From a virus (Duplodnaviria; Heunggongvirae; Uroviricota; Caudoviricetes), in IMG/VR virus record IMGVR_UViG_2778261354_000018, positions 1 through 8,561 of that record: a stretch of DNA of 8,561 nucleotides, one strand, 5' to 3'. Shown piece after piece: positions 1 to 6,801 of this stretch. Under the pieces are notes generated by a model. It made no database searches. It was not told the DNA's origin and worked only from the letters and a program-made list of their open reading frames with translations. Every line of letters begins with the position of its first letter. The stretch's first letter is position 1. The position numbers and the translations under genes are program-made.

Positions 1-264
1 ATGCTGCCGCAGCATAGCGATATTGAAATAGCCTGGTATGCTTCGATACAGCAGGAGCCGAATGGCTGGAAGACCGTCACCACACAGTTCCACATCCAGG
101 AATTCAGTGAGTATATTGCGCCACTGCAGGATGCTGTAGATCTGGAAATCGCAACGGAGGAAGAAAGATCGTTGCTGGAGGCATGGAATAAATATCGGGT
201 ATTGTTGAATCATGTTGATACAACAGTAGCAGCGGATGTCGAATGGCCAGTAGCCCCACAATAA
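1..264 (+). CDS. tfa: Tail fibre assembly protein (Tfa-like), C-terminal part; 5' end lies outside the window
   Basis: The C-terminal residues ([51 protein letters not shown]) closely match the conserved C-terminus of lambda Tfa / P2 gpG-type tail fibre assembly proteins as I recall them. The ATG at position 1 is probably internal and the ORF is open to the window edge. Stop TAA at 262-264. Confidence 0.8.
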
Positions 265-270
265 AAAGAA

Positions 271-300
271 AAAGCCATCGACAGAAATATCGATGGCTTT
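271..300. terminator. Hairpin between convergent tfa (+) and acetyltransferase (-); likely intrinsic terminator, strongest for the minus-strand transcript
   Basis: Perfect inverted repeat AAAGCCATCGA (271-281) / TCGATGGCTTT (290-300) with an 8-nt loop. On the minus strand the stem is followed by a T-rich run (TTTTCTTTTTATT, complement of 258-270). On the plus strand the tail is only moderately T-rich. Confidence 0.6.
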
Positions 301-307
301 ATGTACT

Positions 308-880
308 CTATTTATACAATACAACACCGCTCTTTTTAGTTATATATGTGCAGTTAGACGGTATATCTTTATTTATGAAGGACATTGCACCAATTTTAAC
401 ATTATCGCCTATGGTGAAACCGGAACCAAGTATAAAACAATGCGCCCCAATGTCCACATTGTTACCAATAATCACGTGGTCATGTTCATTGCATGATTGA
501 CTGCGGCCAATCGTGGTGTTTTGCCTGATTGTTAGATTATCACCGATAATCGCTGTGCTGGTGACAACAATGCCTGTATGATGAAGAATTGTAAGCCCCT
601 TGCCAATTGTTAGCCCAAGGCCAAGATCGCATCCATATTCGTTAAGCAATCTACGATTGATTTTTTTTGCCGCTTTTTTAGTTAATTTACCTCCATGGAT
701 GAACATCTCGTTAGCCAGTCTCCACCAAAAAAGATAATTTCGCGATCGTGATCTTTTCTCTCTTAAAAGCCTCCATATGGTCATATTGTCACGACGTATT
801 ACTTCTGCTTTCCAGAATTTTTTTAAATCAGTAGAGTTTCCAAACAAAACAAAGTGAATAGCCATTAAGTAAGATAACAC
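308..880 (-). CDS. Hexapeptide-repeat (left-handed beta-helix) acetyltransferase, CysE/WcaB/NodL-like; AT-rich moron
   Basis: Tandem [LIV]-G-x-x-x-x hexapeptide repeats (IGDNLT IRQNTT IGRSQS ... IGNNVD IGAHCF ILGSGF TIGDNV KIGAMSF) and an overall WcaB/serine-acetyltransferase-like layout. Stop TAG at 310-308. Start is uncertain: GTG at 880-878 lies 6 nt downstream of an AAGGAG Shine-Dalgarno and is preferred; alternatives are ATG at 865-863 or the ORF-track ATG at 913, which has no SD and sits only about 12 nt from the predicted transcription start. Region is strongly AT-rich compared with the flanking tail genes. Confidence 0.8.
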   Translation of the reverse strand: MLSYLMAIHFVLFGNSTDLKKFWKAEVIRRDNMTIWRLLREKRSRSRNYLFWWRLANEMFIHGGKLTKKAAKKINRRLLNEYGCDLGLGLTIGKGLTILHHTGIVVTSTAIIGDNLTIRQNTTIGRSQSCNEHDHVIIGNNVDIGAHCFILGSGFTIGDNVKIGAMSFINKDIPSNCTYITKKSGVVLYK

Positions 881-931
881 GATAATCTCCTTAATTATTA
901 TTTCAGACCACAAACGTTATAAGGTTAAGAG

Positions 932-960
932 ATTATAAAATCCCGTTATTTGTTATTCAA
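932..960 (-). promoter_or_regulatory. Candidate sigma70 promoter for the acetyltransferase moron
   Basis: Read on the minus strand: -35 TTGAAT (960-955), 17-nt spacer, -10 TATAAT (937-932). Predicted transcription start near 925, upstream of the AAGGAG SD and the GTG at 880. Confidence 0.55.
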
Positions 961-998
961 AAACAATTATCTGATAAGGACAAACAACACTTCACCAT

Positions 999-1020
999 GA
1001 CGCCCTGACATCAGGGCGTC
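999..1020 (-). terminator. GC-rich hairpin immediately downstream of U; possible terminator of the tail operon
   Basis: Inverted repeat GACGCCCTGA / TCAGGGCGTC (999-1008 / 1011-1020), 5 nt after the U stop codon (1028-1026). The downstream U-tract on the minus strand is weak (ATGGTGAAGTGTTGTTTG), so terminator function is uncertain. Confidence 0.4.
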
Positions 1021-1025
1021 TTCAT

Positions 1026-1490
1026 TCACACAAGTACCGAAAGGTTATTAAGCGCCCCTTTAACGTTATTCGCCAGATCGCCAAGTGACGAGGACTGGAG
1101 GCGCTCACGCAAATCTTCATTCACACGCTGAAAGGTCACCGTAAACTCTATCTTCCTGGCCCTGCCATAGCGATCGAGTTCTGAGCGCGTGGTCTGTAAC
1201 GAGGTTATGACGTACATCCCGTAAATCTGCCCGACACCATCAATCAGTGGCCATGGACGCCCCGCATACGCCTGAGTTGTCAGTGCCGTAAGCGAGACTT
1301 CACCGCCTGTTATTTCCGGGTAGAGAAGACCGGAAAGCGTGATGGTATCGTCACCCGCACCGATATACTGCCAGCTTGCCGAGCGGTTGATTCGCTCGTT
1401 CTTTACATGCCGCCAGTTACGGGACTGCTGTATTTGTTGGTGTGGCAGTTTGCTTAGCTGAAAAACAAACATGCCGTAAATCATCATCAT
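1026..1490 (-). CDS. U: Phage tail protein U (P2 gpU family)
   Basis: Translation (MMMIYGMFVFQLSKLPHQQIQQSRNWRH...GAGDDTITLSGLLYPEITGG...) resembles P2 gpU as I recall it. Several clustered starts exist (GTG 1499, ATG 1496, 1490, 1487, 1484). ATG at 1490 is 8 nt after an AGGAG that overlaps the T stop codon (TAGGAG), so it is preferred. Stop TGA at 1028-1026. Confidence 0.85.
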   Translation of the reverse strand: MMMIYGMFVFQLSKLPHQQIQQSRNWRHVKNERINRSASWQYIGAGDDTITLSGLLYPEITGGEVSLTALTTQAYAGRPWPLIDGVGQIYGMYVITSLQTTRSELDRYGRARKIEFTVTFQRVNEDLRERLQSSSLGDLANNVKGALNNLSVLV

Positions 1491-1501
1491 AGCCATCACT
1501 C

Positions 1502-4354
1502 CTAATCACGATCGCGGAAGCTGTTTATGCCACCGGACTGTCTGCGAATTTCTTCACGTACCGCCTCCCCCACCATTCTGGCAAGGTCGCGCGGATTCTG
1601 TGTAACCACGTTATGAAGGTGAACGTGAATTTCCCCATCAAACACAGGCGACGGCGCAGGCGCAGATGCACGCGATGCCGAACCCGATGATGGCGAAACC
1701 GGTGCCCACTGCTTAACCTCCACAGGACGGGAAGTATCCGGGGAAACAACCGGAGACACGGGTGAAAGCGCTGGCACAGGCGGAAGCCCGGGGGCAACAG
1801 TCGGTTCATTCCACTGCCCACGAACGGCCAGCGCGCGGGGGAGATTTTTAAACACGATATCGCCGGGGCCGATACGCTTACGGGCTTCCTGAAGCATACC
1901 CGACGTATTGCCTTCGATACCCTTGAGCCTGCGAAGAACGCCACTGGTACCGTCGTTTATGACAGAAGGCTTGCCGCCATTTTCATCATTACCCCCTTTG
2001 CCTCCCTTATCTCCATTGCCATCAACTGGTTTGGTGATAATGGCATTAACATCACCCTGAAGCAGGGAGAGCTTGCCCTGAAGAAGCGAAGCCCGCTGTG
2101 CATCCTCAAGTTTCCGTCGCGCCCTTTCCGCTTCATCTGGCAACACGCCCAGTTTTTCCAGTACCCAGGCAAGCCCGTCCATCAGCGCCTTCATAGGTGT
2201 AAGTGCGAGCGATATCGCCCCGCTGAGCACGCGACCAAAAGTTTCCCCGGCCGATGTACACCGTTCAAGAGATTCATTACTGGCCTGAACCGGCGTGAGC
2301 AACCGGGTAAACCAGTCGAACACCGTGGACACCGCACCCGATACCAGATCAAACAGCGGCGCAAACTGCGCGATACTTTCACGAACAGGCGCAAGGCCAG
2401 CCCACAGCGCCCGGAATGTGCCGAGCATGAAGGCCTTAACCTGTTCCCAGTGACGCCATATGAGCAGCGCCCCACCGGCAAGGGCAGCAATCACGAGACC
2501 AACAGGACTGAGAAGACCGGCAAGCGCCCCGCCCAGCACCGAAAACGCACCGGATACCATCCCCCACAGTGCCGGAAGTCCGGACAGGCGAAGGACAAGA
2601 CCACTGACGCCGGTTGCAACGGAGGAAAGCCCGCCACCAAGAAGCGCAGAGCCAAGCTGAAGTTTTGCAAAAACCCCCGTCAGCAATCCACCACCGACAG
2701 ACAGCGCGCCTATGGCCGTTGTGGCCGCAAGCACGCCCCCCACGGTAAGGGTCAGTGTGCGTACAAGCTGCGGGTTTTCCTGAATCCACGACCTGAAACG
2801 TTCGCCCACAGAAGCAACAGCCTGTACAAGCTCGCGGATATCATCAGTAACCAGCGACACAACATCACTGCGTATACCGGAGAAGACGCCAGACAGACGA
2901 TCGGCATCACCGCCGAGGTTATCCCGCAGGACATCCCCCATTCGCCGGGCGGTTCCCTGAACCTGTCCCATACGGTCTGATACCGTTGCCAGCGAGCGGA
3001 GAAAATCCGGGATCTGGTCAACGGCAAGATCTTCAATGGGTGTGCCGAACAGCGCTATCGCCGCATTAGCCCGTTCTGCCGGATCCTGAATCTTCAGCAG
3101 CCCGGCAGCCGTTCGCTGCATTGCCTCGCGTGCAGCTGCGCCTCCGCTGGCAATCGCTGACGACATTCTTTCAGCGTTAAGACCAATCATCTCATAGGCT
3201 TCAACGCTTGCTTTGGACATATCCGAACCGCGAATACTGAATTCCTTGACGGCATCGCCGGTTTTATCCAGGGCGAATTTTCCCTGCTGTGCCATGCTGA
3301 CAAGCAGCGTCATGGTTTCAGAGCCGGAAAGCCCCATATTGCGGAAGTGCGTGGAATACTCATGCAGAATTTCAGGAAGTTCAGCGCGCATTTCGGCAGA
3401 CATTTTCTGCATCCCTGCCGCCATCAGGTCGACCGCCTCCCCGGCATTTGCGGCAAGCCCGTTTTTCAGCATGATTCCGGCAGCCTGAACCTGTTCAGCC
3501 ACACTACCGCCGGTGACCTGAGCAAGATCCAGCGCCTGCCGTGTCACCCGTTCGAGCTCTTCAGTCCCCACCGTACCCAGTGAGCCAAGCGTGCTTTGCG
3601 TCGCAGCTGCCGCCTCTGAAATCATCGCAATATCCGTTGCAACACCCGACGCCCGGATATTCTGAATCATCCGGCTGTAGCGCTGCCCGTCATCCGCACT
3701 GCCGCCACTCTGTGCCGCAATAAGCGCGCCCTGCCGTTGCTCTTCAACAACAGGCGCAACCGCATGTCCGGCGGCGTACAGACCAGCACTGCCCGCCGCC
3801 ATGGCAAACGCTCCGCGCTGGCTTAGTTTACCGGCGATATCATGAACACGATCGTAACGTTGCTGTGCCTGCGTGACGCGCGAAAGCTGAGCCTGCTGGC
3901 GTTCAAGCTGATCGTTGTATTCCTGCGTTCGCCTGATTGCTTCCTCCACAGCGCGGTTACTTCCGTCAGCCCGTATGCCGTGGGCTTCCAGTTCGCGACC
4001 GGCCTCCCGTAATCGGGACTGGTGAAGGGAGTACACAGTATTAAGGCGCTCAACCTTTGCGGTCAGCGCCCGGAGAGTTTCCTGCTGCTTTTCCGTCAGT
4101 GCTGTGCCGGTGCGCTGTGCTTCCTGAAGGCGCTGAAGTCGCGCACGCGCATCATTCAGACTGTTTTCAGTCGAAGCGACCTGCTGACGGGCACGGGAAA
4201 ACGCATCACTGCTTCGCTGGAGTGACTTAAGCGCGTTCTGTGTGGACGAAAGGGATTCAGAAAGCGCGCCGGTCATTTCCCGGGCGCGCCTGACAGGTTG
4301 AGTGAGACGGTCGACCGCAGTGAGGGCTACACGTATCTGGAGATTATTACTCAT
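1502..4354 (-). CDS. T: Tail tape measure protein (P2 gpT family), about 950 aa
   Basis: Long ORF with coiled-coil-like N-terminal region, central Gly/Ala-rich hydrophobic segments and a Pro/Ser-rich C-terminal region, sitting between E/E' and U as in P2. Start placed at ATG 4354-4352 (MSNNLQIRV...), which overlaps the end of the E' frame (gATGAGTAA). The ORF-track start at 4408 is an upstream in-frame extension. Stop TAG at 1504-1502. Confidence 0.9.
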   Translation of the reverse strand: MSNNLQIRVALTAVDRLTQPVRRAREMTGALSESLSSTQNALKSLQRSSDAFSRARQQVASTENSLNDARARLQRLQEAQRTGTALTEKQQETLRALTAKVERLNTVYSLHQSRLREAGRELEAHGIRADGSNRAVEEAIRRTQEYNDQLERQQAQLSRVTQAQQRYDRVHDIAGKLSQRGAFAMAAGSAGLYAAGHAVAPVVEEQRQGALIAAQSGGSADDGQRYSRMIQNIRASGVATDIAMISEAAAATQSTLGSLGTVGTEELERVTRQALDLAQVTGGSVAEQVQAAGIMLKNGLAANAGEAVDLMAAGMQKMSAEMRAELPEILHEYSTHFRNMGLSGSETMTLLVSMAQQGKFALDKTGDAVKEFSIRGSDMSKASVEAYEMIGLNAERMSSAIASGGAAAREAMQRTAAGLLKIQDPAERANAAIALFGTPIEDLAVDQIPDFLRSLATVSDRMGQVQGTARRMGDVLRDNLGGDADRLSGVFSGIRSDVVSLVTDDIRELVQAVASVGERFRSWIQENPQLVRTLTLTVGGVLAATTAIGALSVGGGLLTGVFAKLQLGSALLGGGLSSVATGVSGLVLRLSGLPALWGMVSGAFSVLGGALAGLLSPVGLVIAALAGGALLIWRHWEQVKAFMLGTFRALWAGLAPVRESIAQFAPLFDLVSGAVSTVFDWFTRLLTPVQASNESLERCTSAGETFGRVLSGAISLALTPMKALMDGLAWVLEKLGVLPDEAERARRKLEDAQRASLLQGKLSLLQGDVNAIITKPVDGNGDKGGKGGNDENGGKPSVINDGTSGVLRRLKGIEGNTSGMLQEARKRIGPGDIVFKNLPRALAVRGQWNEPTVAPGLPPVPALSPVSPVVSPDTSRPVEVKQWAPVSPSSGSASRASAPAPSPVFDGEIHVHLHNVVTQNPRDLARMVGEAVREEIRRQSGGINSFRDRD

Positions 4355-4894
4355 CGTTATGATTCCCGGCTCTGGCAGCCGCCCGCTCTCGCCAGGCAAC
4401 AACCTCACCAGGACTCATACCGAATATCTCTGCGGGCGACCAGTTAAAAACAACAGCGATATCAGCAACAAGCTCTTCGATATCGTCAAACAGGAGGCGA
4501 ATTACATCACACCCGTATTCATCTTTTTCTTGCCGGGCAAGGCCTTCGGCGCGAAAAAATGCGTGGCCGCCGTGGAAAGCGCCCCGAAATCCTCCGTGCG
4601 CATGGTCGACAACTCCGCTTCAGTGAGACGGGGCTCTGTAACACGAGCGAGATAAACGCACATCGCGTTAAAGTTCAGGTTGTACAGGTGAGCCAGAGAC
4701 AGACCACGCAGCGAACCACTCTGACGGGCACGCTCGCCAATCTTCACATGTGTAATAATCTGTTCGCCACGGATGACCGGGTTTGTTAATTCAATGAGCT
4801 CACCGTTATAGGCAACCTCATTACCATCAGCAGCATCGAAGTCGTCGACGTTATCAGCACCGACAACCGGCATTTCGTTTTGTTTTTTTGACAT
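4347..4894 (-). CDS. E': E+E' fusion made by programmed -1 ribosomal frameshift (tail assembly chaperone, long form)
   Basis: After the slippery site, the -1 frame stays open for about 68 codons (RAEGLARQEKDEYGCDVIRLLFDDIEELVADIAVVFNWSPAEIFGMSPGEVVAWRERAAARAGNHNDE) and ends at TAA 4349-4347, overlapping the T start codon. Frame arithmetic is consistent with a -1 shift. This mirrors the E/E' arrangement known in P2 and the G/GT arrangement in lambda. Confidence 0.65.
4502..4894 (-). CDS. E: Tail assembly chaperone E (zero-frame product)
   Basis: Position between FII and T matches P2 gene E. AGGAG Shine-Dalgarno 9 nt upstream of ATG 4894-4892. Contains the slippery heptamer T_TTT_TTC near its 3' end. 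Stop TAA at 4504-4502. Confidence 0.75.
   Translation of the reverse strand: MSKKQNEMPVVGADNVDDFDAADGNEVAYNGELIELTNPVIRGEQIITHVKIGERARQSGSLRGLSLAHLYNLNFNAMCVYLARVTEPRLTEAELSTMRTEDFGALSTAATHFFAPKALPGKKKMNTGVM
4553..4559 (-). other. Slippery heptamer T_TTT_TTC (X_XXY_YYZ) for the E/E' -1 frameshift
   Basis: Minus-strand codons CAT TTT TTC (4561-4553) in the E zero frame. Plus strand reads gaaaaaa at 4553-4559. Confidence 0.6.
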
Positions 4895-4939
4895 CGTGAA
4901 ATTCTCCTGGCGGCCACACGACCGCCGTCAGTCAGTTAA

Positions 4940-5452
4940 TCAGCCAAGCCCCAGCATGGAGCGGGTGCGGTCAGGCAACACATCCTTGCCATCAACGCGC
5001 CAGATGAAGTTCAGCACGTCGATTTCAATAACATCGCTGTTATCAACGCTGAGCTTGTACCAGGTGCATTTCATCGCGTAGGTATGTTCGGTATCCTCAC
5101 CCTGTTTGGCTTCGCCCTTGTCGATTTCGACAATGCGCCCACGGGCTTCAATATCGACGTACTCAATACCCTCTTCGGAATAGTATTCACCCGAGAAGCG
5201 CACACGTACCGCATCAATTCCGGCAGCATATTTGGCAAAGATGTGACGGTCCACGCCGCCAACCGCAAAGGAGAGATCCAGCGCACCGTCATCAAGACCG
5301 AGATCCACCGCCGCAGAGCCTGGCATACCCGCACCGCGATACGCTTCAGTCTTGCGGGTCAGCTTGGGCGGAGTGAAGGAGGTCACCTTACCCAGCTTGT
5401 TGTCACCGTCCACAAAGACGGTAAACACACGAAGTTTTTTTGGCACAGCCAT
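4940..5452 (-). CDS. FII: Tail tube protein (P2 gpFII family)
   Basis: Translation (MAVPKKLRVFTVFVDGDNKLGKVTSFTPPKLTRKTEAYRGAGMPGSAAVDLGLDDGAL...KQGEDTEH...) resembles P2 FII. GGAGG SD about 7 nt upstream. Its ATG (5452-5450) overlaps the FI stop TGA (5454-5452) as TGATG-type coupling. Confidence 0.9.
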   Translation of the reverse strand: MAVPKKLRVFTVFVDGDNKLGKVTSFTPPKLTRKTEAYRGAGMPGSAAVDLGLDDGALDLSFAVGGVDRHIFAKYAAGIDAVRVRFSGEYYSEEGIEYVDIEARGRIVEIDKGEAKQGEDTEHTYAMKCTWYKLSVDNSDVIEIDVLNFIWRVDGKDVLPDRTRSMLGLG

Positions 5453-6648
5453 CAGTTACCTCCTCCCAGAGATGCAAAAGCAGAACTGAAGAACTCGTCA
5501 GTAAACGTCTGATAAAGTTCCATGCACTCCATAGGCGGAACGGGGGTGTATTTGTAGCGAATACGCACAATACCCTGACGAAGGCTGGTTGTGTCGTTGT
5601 CGATGATATCGAACCAGCATTCCGCCCCGATAAGTTTTCCGGCCGTGACCAGCGCATCCAGTTTTGCCTTGATAGCGCTGATCGCATCCTTCGCGTTGGC
5701 TGGCGTCAACGGTGAATCAACCACCTGAAGCTGCGCCTCTGCGATAGTATCAGCCAGTTGTTGCGAGGTACGGGTGTACACCTCAAAGGTATATTCCGAC
5801 GTATCCGGCGTACGGTTACCCCAGAAACGGAAGGAGCCGTCACCCTGGTGAATAAGCGTGGTCACTTCGCTGTTATTCAGCGTATTGGCATCGCTGTTTT
5901 CATCCTGAAGCGACCAGGAGACAGGCACTGATAACCCAAGAACATTTTTCACAGGCATGTTGGAAAGCGAACGATGCCAGCCCTGTTCGTGGTCCAGTCG
6001 GGCACGAAGGCCGCACGCATACGCCGCAGCAGGGAACGTTTCGTTTTTACCTGACACCGGGTTGAAGGCGATAAAATCAGGCCACAGAAGCATGATTTCA
6101 CGCCCGGAAACCTTTTTGCGGAATGCAATGGCATCAGACGGTTTTGTGCAGCCGGGGCAGCCGGAGTACGCAAAAGCACGCATCTTTCCCGCCACCGTCA
6201 CTAGTGCCGCCGTAACGGCGTCAGATTCAAGGCCGGGCGCGGCAAGAATGCGCGGGCGGTAACCAATACCTTCCATCTGTTCAGCAACAAGAAAGGCCTG
6301 CATCCCTGAATAGCTGCCGTCTTCTTCCGTGGTACCAATGACAAGCTGATCCTGCGTTTTGTTTTCCGGGCCTTCCTGAGCTGCCGCCACGCGAACGACA
6401 ATTACCCGGGTGCTTACCTGGTCAGAAATAGCCTTAAGAGACTTGTAAAGGGTACCTGTTTCCCCGGCCTTGCCCAGAACCGAAGATACGCGGGTAAGCA
6501 GTACCGGCTTGTTAAGAGGGAACTGTTCGGCATCCGCATCATCTGCAACGGCAACAATACCAATGACGCTGGAATCAACGTCATTAATTGCCGTCACCAG
6601 GTCGGTATTTTCCCTGACGCGCACACCGTGAAATCGTGTTTCAGCCAT
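5452..6648 (-). CDS. FI: Tail sheath protein (P2 gpFI family)
   Basis: Translation (MAETRFHGVRV...DADAEQFPLNKPVLLTRV...GLRARLDHEQGWHRSLSNMPV...FRFWGNRT...YKYTPVPPME) resembles P2 FI sheath protein throughout. Start placed at ATG 6648-6646, preceded by GGTGA at 5-nt spacing. In-frame alternatives are ATG 6660 and GTG 6663. Confidence 0.9.
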   Translation of the reverse strand: MAETRFHGVRVRENTDLVTAINDVDSSVIGIVAVADDADAEQFPLNKPVLLTRVSSVLGKAGETGTLYKSLKAISDQVSTRVIVVRVAAAQEGPENKTQDQLVIGTTEEDGSYSGMQAFLVAEQMEGIGYRPRILAAPGLESDAVTAALVTVAGKMRAFAYSGCPGCTKPSDAIAFRKKVSGREIMLLWPDFIAFNPVSGKNETFPAAAYACGLRARLDHEQGWHRSLSNMPVKNVLGLSVPVSWSLQDENSDANTLNNSEVTTLIHQGDGSFRFWGNRTPDTSEYTFEVYTRTSQQLADTIAEAQLQVVDSPLTPANAKDAISAIKAKLDALVTAGKLIGAECWFDIIDNDTTSLRQGIVRIRYKYTPVPPMECMELYQTFTDEFFSSAFASLGGGN

Positions 6649-6723
6649 ACGATTCACCATCACTTGTGTTTAATCTCGCCTGAATAATCCACTACTGGCG
6701 GGCAGCCTTCACGTGATGCGGGT

Positions 6724-6741
6724 TGTGTGGATTTTTTTACA
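6724..6741. promoter_or_regulatory. TGT-N12-ACA dyad resembling the Ogr/Delta activator site of P2-type late promoters, in the divergent FI/D intergenic region
   Basis: TGTgtggatttttttACA at 6724-6741. Its centre (about 6732) is roughly 55 bp from plausible transcription starts in both directions: about 6788 for D, with a -10-like GATGAT at 6776-6781, and about 6677 for FI. A single match of this short motif could occur by chance, so this is a candidate only. Confidence 0.4.
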
Positions 6742-6801
6742 ACATAGCCGGACAGAAACGACAGGGTACGCGTGGGATGATACGCACACGGGAGGGGCAT
6801 C

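Follow-up and report, generated by a model that had tools for sequence, protein, structure and literature searches.

A predicted P2-type E/E' tail-chaperone frameshift site, conserved but ordinary, in a P2-like prophage

The window analyzed here is the whole 8,561-nt stretch that makes up positions 1 to 8,561 of the IMG/VR virus record IMGVR_UViG_2778261354_000018. It carries tail genes in the order sheath, tube, E, E', tape measure and U, which matches the F operon of P2, and the flanking tail genes are all intact. The features at the E/E' junction and on both sides of it are as follows.

4940..5452, minus strand: tail tube gene FII, directly upstream of E (Pfam Phage_tube, E=3.1e-49)
4908..4904, minus strand: Shine-Dalgarno AGGAG of E, 9 nt 5' of the ATG (sequence inspection)
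4894..4502, minus strand: gene E, tail assembly chaperone, 130 aa, from ATG 4894 to TAA 4504..4502 (open reading frame and homology)
4502..4619, minus strand: stretch read as E in the zero frame and also open in the -1 frame, a 115-nt overlap (reading-frame inspection)
4559..4553, minus strand: slippery heptamer T_TTT_TTC (mRNA U_UUU_UUC); the zero-frame codons CAT TTT TTC place it in X_XXY_YYZ phase
4529..4523, minus strand: candidate second slip site G_AAA_AAG with in-phase A_AAG at 4526..4523 (from the sequence; function only predicted)
4347..4553, minus strand: E' coding segment, 68 post-slip codons (RAEG...NHNDE) plus TAA 4349..4347; base 4553 is read twice
4362..4469, minus strand: conserved GpE domain, residues 143-178 of the fusion (Pfam PF06528 Phage_P2_GpE)
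1502..4354, minus strand: tape-measure gene T, 950 aa, start ATG 4354..4352 (Pfam PhageMin_Tail, E=1.1e-18)

Beginning at 4619, right behind a stop at 4622..4620, the -1 frame runs through 90 codons without interruption up to the TAA at 4349..4347. Exactly 68 of its codons follow the slip, where about 68 had been estimated before, and they bring the fusion to 182 aa. The stop of E' lies inside ATGAGTAA (gATGAGTAA) together with the ATG of T (4354..4352); this overlap, recognized in the preliminary description, measures 8 nt, and T begins with MSNN, as does T of P2. The long product is indeed missed by the six-frame ORF track, in which no minus-strand ORF of at least 40 aa ending at 4347 is listed. 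The three antisense ORFs of the plus strand that overlap the region and were scanned (4302-4655, 4559-4789 and 4298-4447) have no Pfam or PHROG family match, and no promoter-like or relevant terminator-like site was found within 4200-5100.

The start of E is identical to that chosen by PGAP in a 94% identical E. coli locus. The product falls in PHROG 103, 'tail protein' (E=7.8e-29). By its sequence it is a sub-threshold relative of the Pfam model PF10109 Phage_TAC_7 (chaperones E, 41 or 14), with which E alone scores 19 bits and the fusion 21 bits, both under the gathering threshold of 25. An NCBIfam scan gave no match, nor did a PDB sequence search at E up to 1. A protein homologue search with E returned two near-identical clusters only, both unnamed or 'hypothetical', and a search of genome contigs for related loci found nothing with E alone as the query; this search succeeded when an alignment of fusion proteins was used instead. 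In an index of public assemblies, 152 blocks contain the exact E protein. Its conceptual translation provides TEDFGALSTAATHFFAPK as a diagnostic peptide of the zero frame.

The -1 frame matches Pfam PF06528 Phage_P2_GpE with 52.2 bits (E=4.1e-14, cut-off 23) as well as PHROGs 1756 and 6416. The preliminary description had named dissimilarity of the -1 frame to E' homologues as evidence against its reading, and this is not what the locus shows. The GpE domain is the only part with a DNA-level match to phage genomes, at 73-79% identity. Ahead of the conserved E' domain, the -1 frame has no ATG, GTG or TTG. Across 138 relatives, the entropy at the three codon positions of the E' frame is 0.65, 0.345 and 1.117, and three of the four differences between this E' and that of locus L001 are synonymous in the -1 frame, against none in the other two frames. 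Over the first 14 post-slip codons, the mean pairwise identity of the 61 relatives with the same spacing is 0.573 for the -1 translation versus 0.426 for the zero frame. On these grounds the -1 frame is a real coding sequence, constrained from the slip site onward. Relatives share the linker motif G.W..ER.GDG in the -1 frame after the slip, from which the linker found here, GLARQEKDEYG, departs. Alignment of the 182-aa fusion with E+E' of P2, which had been proposed as a check, gave 38% identity over 149 aa (BLASTP, E=1e-32), colinear through the junction and covering residues 33-113 of the E part. With the same fusion as the query, tblastn matched 380 phage records, and among the matches listed nearly all came in two pieces.

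Between the heptamer and the stop of E we counted 16 sense codons, in agreement with the earlier count. The heptamer shares its alignment column with the slip sites of P2, 186 and P88 (codons GGT TTT TTG in P2 and 186), and it is unchanged in all eight close variants. An X_XXY_YYZ heptamer lies in phase within the overlap at 130 of the 138 unique related loci; in 18 aligned representatives it occupies the same column or, for AAATTTT and CCCTTTC, a position one codon upstream. TTTTTTG is the commonest form among the related loci and TTTTTTC is rare. In E. coli, U_UU.U_UU.C belongs to the efficient motifs, and the H_HH.U_UU.Y class ranks with the most efficient ones (PMC4066793).

We also looked for elements that could stimulate a shift. 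The folding energy of the 45 nt that follow the heptamer is -9.6 kcal/mol, which is nothing outstanding relative to shuffled sequences (z=0.05) and bears out the earlier remark that no obvious downstream hairpin is present; the same 45-nt region in 18 relatives gave z values from -1.8 to +2.0 and no common fold. No Shine-Dalgarno-like stimulator was found in the 20 nt upstream of the heptamer in this lineage. The fold of a 120-nt stretch is notable (z=-1.96), and in it the heptamer itself is paired with GAAAAAG. We rejected this fold as a classical stimulator because its inner GC hairpin, which begins 3 nt after the heptamer, is too close to it. G_AAA_AAG, the candidate second slip site, exactly complements the heptamer; the minimum-free-energy fold has it paired with UUUUUUC, and the two can form a 37-nt hairpin (4559..4523).

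The homology of the -1 frame, the colinear fusion, the conserved heptamer column and the gene order all support the preliminary description's reading of a P2-type E/E' chaperone frameshift. The locus thus very probably encodes the two tail-assembly chaperones, E and E+E', of a P2-like (Peduoviridae) prophage, made via programmed -1 ribosomal frameshifting. For slippage at this locus, its ribosomal nature, its efficiency and the roles of both products, we infer the following scheme. Most ribosomes would translate the 130-aa E to its stop at 4502. A minority would slip by -1 on U_UUU_UUC (4559..4553) with one tRNA-Phe on UUU in the P site and another on UUC in the A site, after which both tRNAs would be paired with UUU. 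The slipped ribosomes would read 68 more codons and produce the 182-aa E+E' with the junction ...THFF|RAEG..., for which the expected junction peptide is TEDFGALSTAATHFFR. If the two products work like lambda G and GT, the E part that they share would be what binds the tape measure and the E' domain what brings in the tube protein, and the ratio of E to E+E' would be set by the slip rate.

P2 is the natural reference for this arrangement. PMC3091744 describes a TTTTTTG site in P2, without a hairpin, that yields a 91-aa E and a 142-aa E+E'; there and in PMC3931495, the frameshift in the FETUD tail operon is credited to Christie et al. 2002. In the P2 GenBank record (NC_001895), E+E' is entered as the product of a -1 frameshift that overlaps T by 8 nt, with the note 'essential tail protein', and the 186 record notes that the product is 'probably produced by a translational frameshift'. 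As in P2, the pair found here is located between the tube gene FII and the tape-measure gene T, its E' occupies the -1 frame without a start of its own, the heptamer stands in the same alignment column, the 8-nt E'/T overlap (ATGAGTAA) is identical and no downstream hairpin stands out. The two loci differ in the heptamer, which is T_TTT_TTC here and T_TTT_TTG in P2, and in the distance from the slip to the E stop (16 codons here, 6 in P2). The prophage also has about 10 extra linker residues ahead of the E' domain and a 30-residue acidic N-terminal extension of E (130 versus 91 aa), and it lacks the conserved AAGGTG upstream of P2-type sites. D and ogr are upstream on the other strand here, whereas in P2 they come after U.

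The locus also resembles those of P88-type Peduoviridae (Xuanwuvirus) and related prophages. With them it shares the distance between slip site and ADIAV motif, 29 codons counted in the -1 frame (61 unique loci), a gene order that includes a divergent D upstream of the sheath gene, and a fusion that is about 44% identical. In contrast to this locus, the P88-type loci use TTTTTTG, TTTTTTA, AAATTTT or CCCTTTC, their E' ends at a TGA 14 nt into T, and the tail of their E is acidic where it is lysine-rich here; the linker motif G.W..ER.GDG is degenerate in our copy. The comparison with lambda G/GT made in the preliminary description applies to strategy and gene position, in that a chaperone gene has a second domain fused on through an infrequent -1 shift close to its end. 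It does not extend to sequence similarity, and with hits admitted up to E=0.1 the Pfam scan showed no lambda-type chaperone family. The lambda tail is moreover non-contractile, and its slippery sequence is not the same; both lambda products are needed, in a set ratio of about 30:1, and neither is present in virions (PMC5009743). P2-like prophages of Stenotrophomonas and Xanthomonas carry T7C slippery sites at the E/E' junction (PMC3931495). Like the site found here, these are T runs ending in C, so a C-ending variant has already been described, but they are T7C in distant hosts, whereas this enterobacterial prophage has T6C.

Several other explanations were weighed. E' could be a separate small gene, the 51-aa 'GpE family phage tail protein' that starts from the last base of the E stop. 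It is annotated by PGAP in this way in E. coli SCU-172 and in NCBI assemblies with an identical E, the P88 record holds two separate CDS, and a weak GGGTG is present 7 nt upstream of the annotated start. That start is however an ATT, the frame offers no ordinary start codon ahead of the conserved domain, and conservation of the -1 protein reaches upstream past the annotated start, back to the heptamer. Where exact-E loci come from ENA records, E' has no gene call at all, and PGAP gives the sister allele just a 23-aa fragment. For P2 itself, PMC3931495 reports an E' without a ribosome-binding site. We therefore regard a separate E' gene as very improbable. Slippage of RNA polymerase in the T6 run, adding one U to a minority of mRNAs, would yield exactly the same E+E' protein. 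Homopolymer runs are prone to slippage, A7 and U7 runs being under-represented in E. coli genes (PMC4066793), and T5, T7 and T8 variants exist among the relatives. Yet the run has only six T, and relatives with CCCTTTC (18 loci) or AAATTTT (8 loci), which contain only three or four T, keep the X_XXY_YYZ phase without a long T run. This is predicted by tRNA re-pairing and not by polymerase slippage, and it thus favors tandem tRNA slippage; a transcriptional origin is, in our opinion, highly unlikely.

The exact position of the slip is another matter. Ribosomes might shift mainly or additionally at the downstream A_AAG (AAG AAA AAG, 4529..4523), which would create an isoform with the junction ...ALPGKKK|DEYG... 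and the junction peptide ALPGKKKDEYGCDVIR. No tetramer is more shift-prone in E. coli than A_AA.G (PMC4066793), and the site is in phase where the -1 frame is open and is kept in the 94% relative. Against it, tetramers alone barely exceed background without a stimulator (PMC4066793), all other family members lack the site while the position of the T-rich heptamer is conserved, and conservation of the -1 frame begins at the heptamer. A shift at A_AAG is thus unlikely but is the alternative to which we give some weight, and because this shift-prone tetramer lies in phase in the same overlap we name the heptamer only as the probable slip position. Finally, the heptamer and the open -1 frame could be a chance pattern or the functionless remains of a decayed gene. 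In-phase heptamers are not rare, with 14 in 2500 codons across the genes of the window and a probability of about 0.14 within the last 41 codons in shuffled sequences, and some relatives are visibly degraded (e.g. Symbiopectobacterium loci and loci with T5, T7 or T8 runs). The same shuffles give a probability of about 0.02 for a -1 frame open to 4347 and about 0.004 for the two jointly. By itself this pattern is only suggestive, and the site is convincing because of homology and conservation. The arrangement is unchanged in the close variants, the exact E recurs in the 152 public assembly blocks, most substitutions in E' are silent when read in the -1 frame, and the neighboring tail genes are intact, which leaves chance or decay with almost no credibility. 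Programmed ribosomal frameshifting thus stays the preferred explanation.

The comparisons point to the usual P2-like tail-chaperone -1 frameshift, conserved but ordinary, which public annotation has missed. For prophages of this type, E is listed as a 'hypothetical protein' in RefSeq and elsewhere in public records, and E' appears there as a 51-aa CDS on a forced ATT start, as a 23-aa fragment or not at all. As a consequence of this annotation, the 182-aa product is missing from protein databases. The value of the locus is mainly for annotation, and knowledge of tail assembly and of frameshifting is unchanged by it. There is a slim chance that this lineage sets its E:E+E' ratio unlike P2, through the more shift-prone, stimulator-free U_UUU_UUC combined with the second in-phase site G_AAA_AAG; the outcome could be a pair of E+E' isoforms, or a slip rate modulated by RNA structure. 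The comparative set forms a natural series of heptamers at one homologous site, with TTTTTTG, A, C and T endings next to CCCTTTC and AAATTTT, and this series could serve to relate the choice of motif to the chaperone ratio.

The E/E' region has its genes on the minus strand. The elements of the E/E' site are as follows.

4894..4892 (ATG) to 4504..4502 (TAA), minus strand: E ORF, 130 aa, read from the sequence
9 nt 5' of the E ATG, minus strand: AGGAG, read from the sequence
4559..4553, minus strand: heptamer TTTTTTC, zero-frame codons CAT TTT TTC

Because its zero-frame codons are CAT TTT TTC, the TTTTTTC is phased as an X_XXY_YYZ heptamer, and 16 sense codons separate it from the E stop. An open -1 frame of 90 codons begins just past a stop at 4622..4620 and runs to the TAA at 4349..4347. 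The conceptual E+E' fusion comprises 182 residues (114 + 68; E through TTC, base 4553 then being re-read), with a junction of ...TAATHFF followed by RAEGLARQ.... The E' stop lies within gATGAGTAA, where the ATG at 4354..4352 starts a 950-aa ORF that carries a PhageMin_Tail domain and is the tape measure, T. The preliminary description had placed T_TTT_TTC in phase 16 codons before the E stop and an open -1 frame of about 68 codons up to a TAA overlapping the T start; re-reading of the sequence bore out both, with exactly 68 codons, and found all of its numbers correct. Between the tube gene stop and the E Shine-Dalgarno, a 5-bp GC stem (GGCGG / CCGCC; 4909-4926, minus strand) encloses an 8-nt loop, with no T run 3' of the stem. 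A partial terminator (tI) is annotated at the equivalent position of phage 186.

By sequence, the two halves of the fusion are homologues of P2 E and E'. Taken by itself, the 68-residue -1 segment, whose similarity to E' homologues had been proposed as a check, matches Pfam PF06528 Phage_P2_GpE (E=4.1e-14, 52 bits for a cut-off of 23) and also PHROGs 1756 and 6416. E matches PHROG 103 'tail protein' (E=7.8e-29); Pfam Phage_TAC_7 scores it at 19-21 bits, under the cut-off of 25, and no NCBIfam model matched it. As the proposed likeness to P2 E/E' leads one to expect, the fusion aligns with P2 E+E' at 38% identity over 149 residues (E=1e-32), colinear through the junction, and the heptamer-encoded Phe is invariant when the fusion is aligned with its counterparts from P2, 186, P88 and an E. 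coli prophage (five sequences). A tblastn search with the fusion returned 380 phage records, mostly Peduoviridae, with two-piece matches in nearly all among the matches listed. The P2 GenBank record gives E+E' as a joined CDS noted '-1 frameshift; essential tail protein', with the T start 8 nt before the E+E' end, identical in the window, and the phage 186 record describes orf52 as 'probably produced by a translational frameshift'.

By itself, the pattern of heptamer and open frame is only moderately unlikely by chance. In-phase X_XXY_YYZ heptamers number 14 per 2500 codons across the genes of the window. In shuffled sequences, such a heptamer in the final 41 codons of E arose with P ~0.14, the open -1 frame with P ~0.02 and the two jointly with P ~0.004. 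The decisive evidence for this predicted site is homology together with conservation.

We gathered 160 related loci from viral contigs and species-representative genomes and analyzed them by script. An in-phase slippery heptamer is present within the E/E' overlap in 130 of the 138 unique E/E' loci. As sole heptamer, TTTTTTG occurs in 68, CCCTTTC in 18, AAATTTT in 8, TTTTTTA in 6, TTTTTTC in 3 (the window, its E. coli relative and an Edwardsiella locus) and TTTTTTT in 1; about 26 further loci have at least two, nearly always including TTTTTTG. Across 18 aligned representatives, roughly 30-45% identical to each other, the heptamer codons occupy one column, with AAATTTT and CCCTTTC one codon upstream. 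The eight loci that lack an in-phase heptamer are one that is cut off, Symbiopectobacterium copies in a degraded state and loci whose T run is T5, T7 or T8. The T-run length at the slip site differs among relatives (L007, T7 at ~1436; L009, T8 at ~1436; L159, T5 at ~1491), and the T7 of L007 places E and E' in a single continuous frame, a natural in-frame fusion. Either they stem from sequencing error or the frameshift site has undergone genuine slipped-strand mutation.

In P2/186-type loci (L004, L006 and about 50 among L109-L166), the codons 5' of T_TTT_TTG are biased: all 49 Lys codons are AAG, against a background of 23% for Lys in these genes, and 53 of 54 Val codons are GTG (background 39% of Val). 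The outcome is an SD-like TAAGGTG(A/G)T, conserved among these loci, whose last base lies ~5 nt 5' of the slip site, and which shows synonymous-site constraint. The element is absent from the window's lineage.

PGAP annotates E' as an independent gene. Such a gene would need an ATT start, and no ATG, GTG or TTG is found in the window's -1 frame upstream of the conserved domain. It would also leave conservation upstream of that ATT unaccounted for: over the first 14 codons past the slip, the -1 translation is conserved at a mean pairwise identity of 0.573 versus 0.426 for the zero frame, with the motif G.W..ER.GDG, in the 61 unique loci that share the window's spacing of 29 codons from slip to the ADIAV motif. 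Therefore, E' cannot be an ordinary free-standing gene. Within the E' domain, column entropy at -1 frame codon positions 1, 2 and 3 is 0.65, 0.345 and 1.117 bits (138 loci). The E'-only stretch differs from the 94% relative at 4 positions, 3 of them synonymous in the -1 frame and 0 in the other two frames. These patterns indicate that the -1 frame is translated from the heptamer onward.

Transcriptional slippage as the source of the fusion is disfavored, given that the T run is short and that relatives have non-homopolymer heptamers. Lineages with just three or four T retain the X_XXY_YYZ pattern, as tandem tRNA re-pairing would predict, unlike polymerase slippage on a homopolymer. A minor isoform could come from a further in-phase site, A_AAG in AAG AAA AAG, which is specific to the window's lineage.

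Under -1 frameshifting, a small fraction of ribosomes would shift on U_UUU_UUC to yield E+E', the remainder producing E. UUU and UUC are both decoded by the one tRNA-Phe of E. coli (anticodon GAA), so both tRNAs would pair fully again once slipped. Motifs of the H_HH.U_UU.Y type, including U_UU.U_UU.C, C_CC.U_UU.C and A_AA.U_UU.U, were among the most efficient when assayed in E. coli, and the A-site tetramer U_UUC ranks above U_UUG (PMC4066793). A heptamer ending in C should thus be no less slippery than that of P2. By analogy with lambda G/GT, the shared E part would bind the tape measure and the E' extension the tail tube subunit; the two lambda products are needed at ~30:1 and neither is in the virion (PMC5009743).

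No obvious stimulatory hairpin had been seen 3' of the heptamer, and indeed the following 45 nt fold no better than shuffles (z=0.05). Post-heptamer folds of 18 relatives are likewise not above shuffles and have no common structure, in agreement with the literature on P2 and relatives (PMC3091744). No SD-like sequence lies within 20 nt upstream of the heptamer. A 120-nt fold (z=-1.96) pairs UUUUUUC with GAAAAAG (4529..4523) around a short GC hairpin, which was rejected as a classical stimulator since it begins 3 nt past the heptamer, too close. The UUUUUUC is exactly complementary to this GAAAAAG, 23 nt downstream and itself an in-phase G_AAA_AAG / A_AAG shift-prone site, and the two close a 37-nt hairpin (4523-4559, minus strand) around the GC stem (4550-4532). 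The hairpin is kept in the 94% relative and in no other lineage.

The window's site is a predicted member of the P2 E/E+E' system, with all the sequence-testable defining features present. Relative to P2, the heptamer ends in another base, the slip site lies 16 rather than 6 codons ahead of the E stop, the linker leading into the E' domain is longer and E is extended at its N-terminus; the AAGGTG element found 5' of P2-type sites is missing. C-ending T-run sites have already been reported from P2-like prophages of Xanthomonas and Stenotrophomonas (PMC3931495). The finding, though correct, is an ordinary one.

Directly after gene U, 308-913 (minus strand) encodes a 201-aa hexapeptide-repeat transferase (Pfam Hexapep, E=1.7e-9), where the E. 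coli relative has a DUF4376 gene; the product may be a cargo (moron) acetyltransferase. The ORF at 1-264 (plus strand) matches the C-terminal half of a tail-fibre assembly protein model (Caudo_TAP, E=7.9e-22) and is overlapped by an Rfam IS009 match (24-227, plus strand; 108.9 bits, a little short of the 117-bit gathering score). The genes D (Phage_GPD) and ogr (Ogr_Delta) lie at 6802-8291 (plus strand), divergent from the sheath gene and upstream of it, as in P88, whereas P2 has them after U. At the prophage edge, 8275-8561 (plus strand) is a hok/sok-type toxin-antitoxin, with an Rfam sok match at 8275-8431 (46 bits, short of the 59-bit gathering score); the 46-aa ORF at 8421-8561 is the counterpart of a gene that the E. 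coli relative has annotated as Hok/Gef.

The window was not found in the complete E. coli RefSeq set, where the best whole-window match is ~89% identical; the closest E/E' copies (94.4%) are in two E. coli prophages adjoining serS. A prophage of the same type in E. coli G1/2 (L174, 797-1332), with flanks ~90% identical to the window, has a quite different E allele of 126 aa, named 'phage tail assembly protein', with T_TTT_TTG 14 codons before its stop. There, E has been exchanged as a module, with E' and the T start retained.

The exact E protein occurs in 152 blocks of an index of public assemblies. Among the records inspected, what comes after it is a 51-aa CDS with an ATT start, or else no E' gene is called; public annotation names E itself 'hypothetical protein'. 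The 51-aa CDS is a PGAP 'GpE family phage tail protein' whose ATT start is on the last base of the E stop (6459-6614 in the E. coli SCU-172 locus, L001; 3393-3548 in L167-L169 and L171). In L174, PGAP calls as E' just a 23-aa 'hypothetical protein' (1261-1332), and in ENA records among the exact-E loci the E' gene is uncalled. Public handling of E' is inconsistent, and the practical value of the finding is the correction of this annotation.
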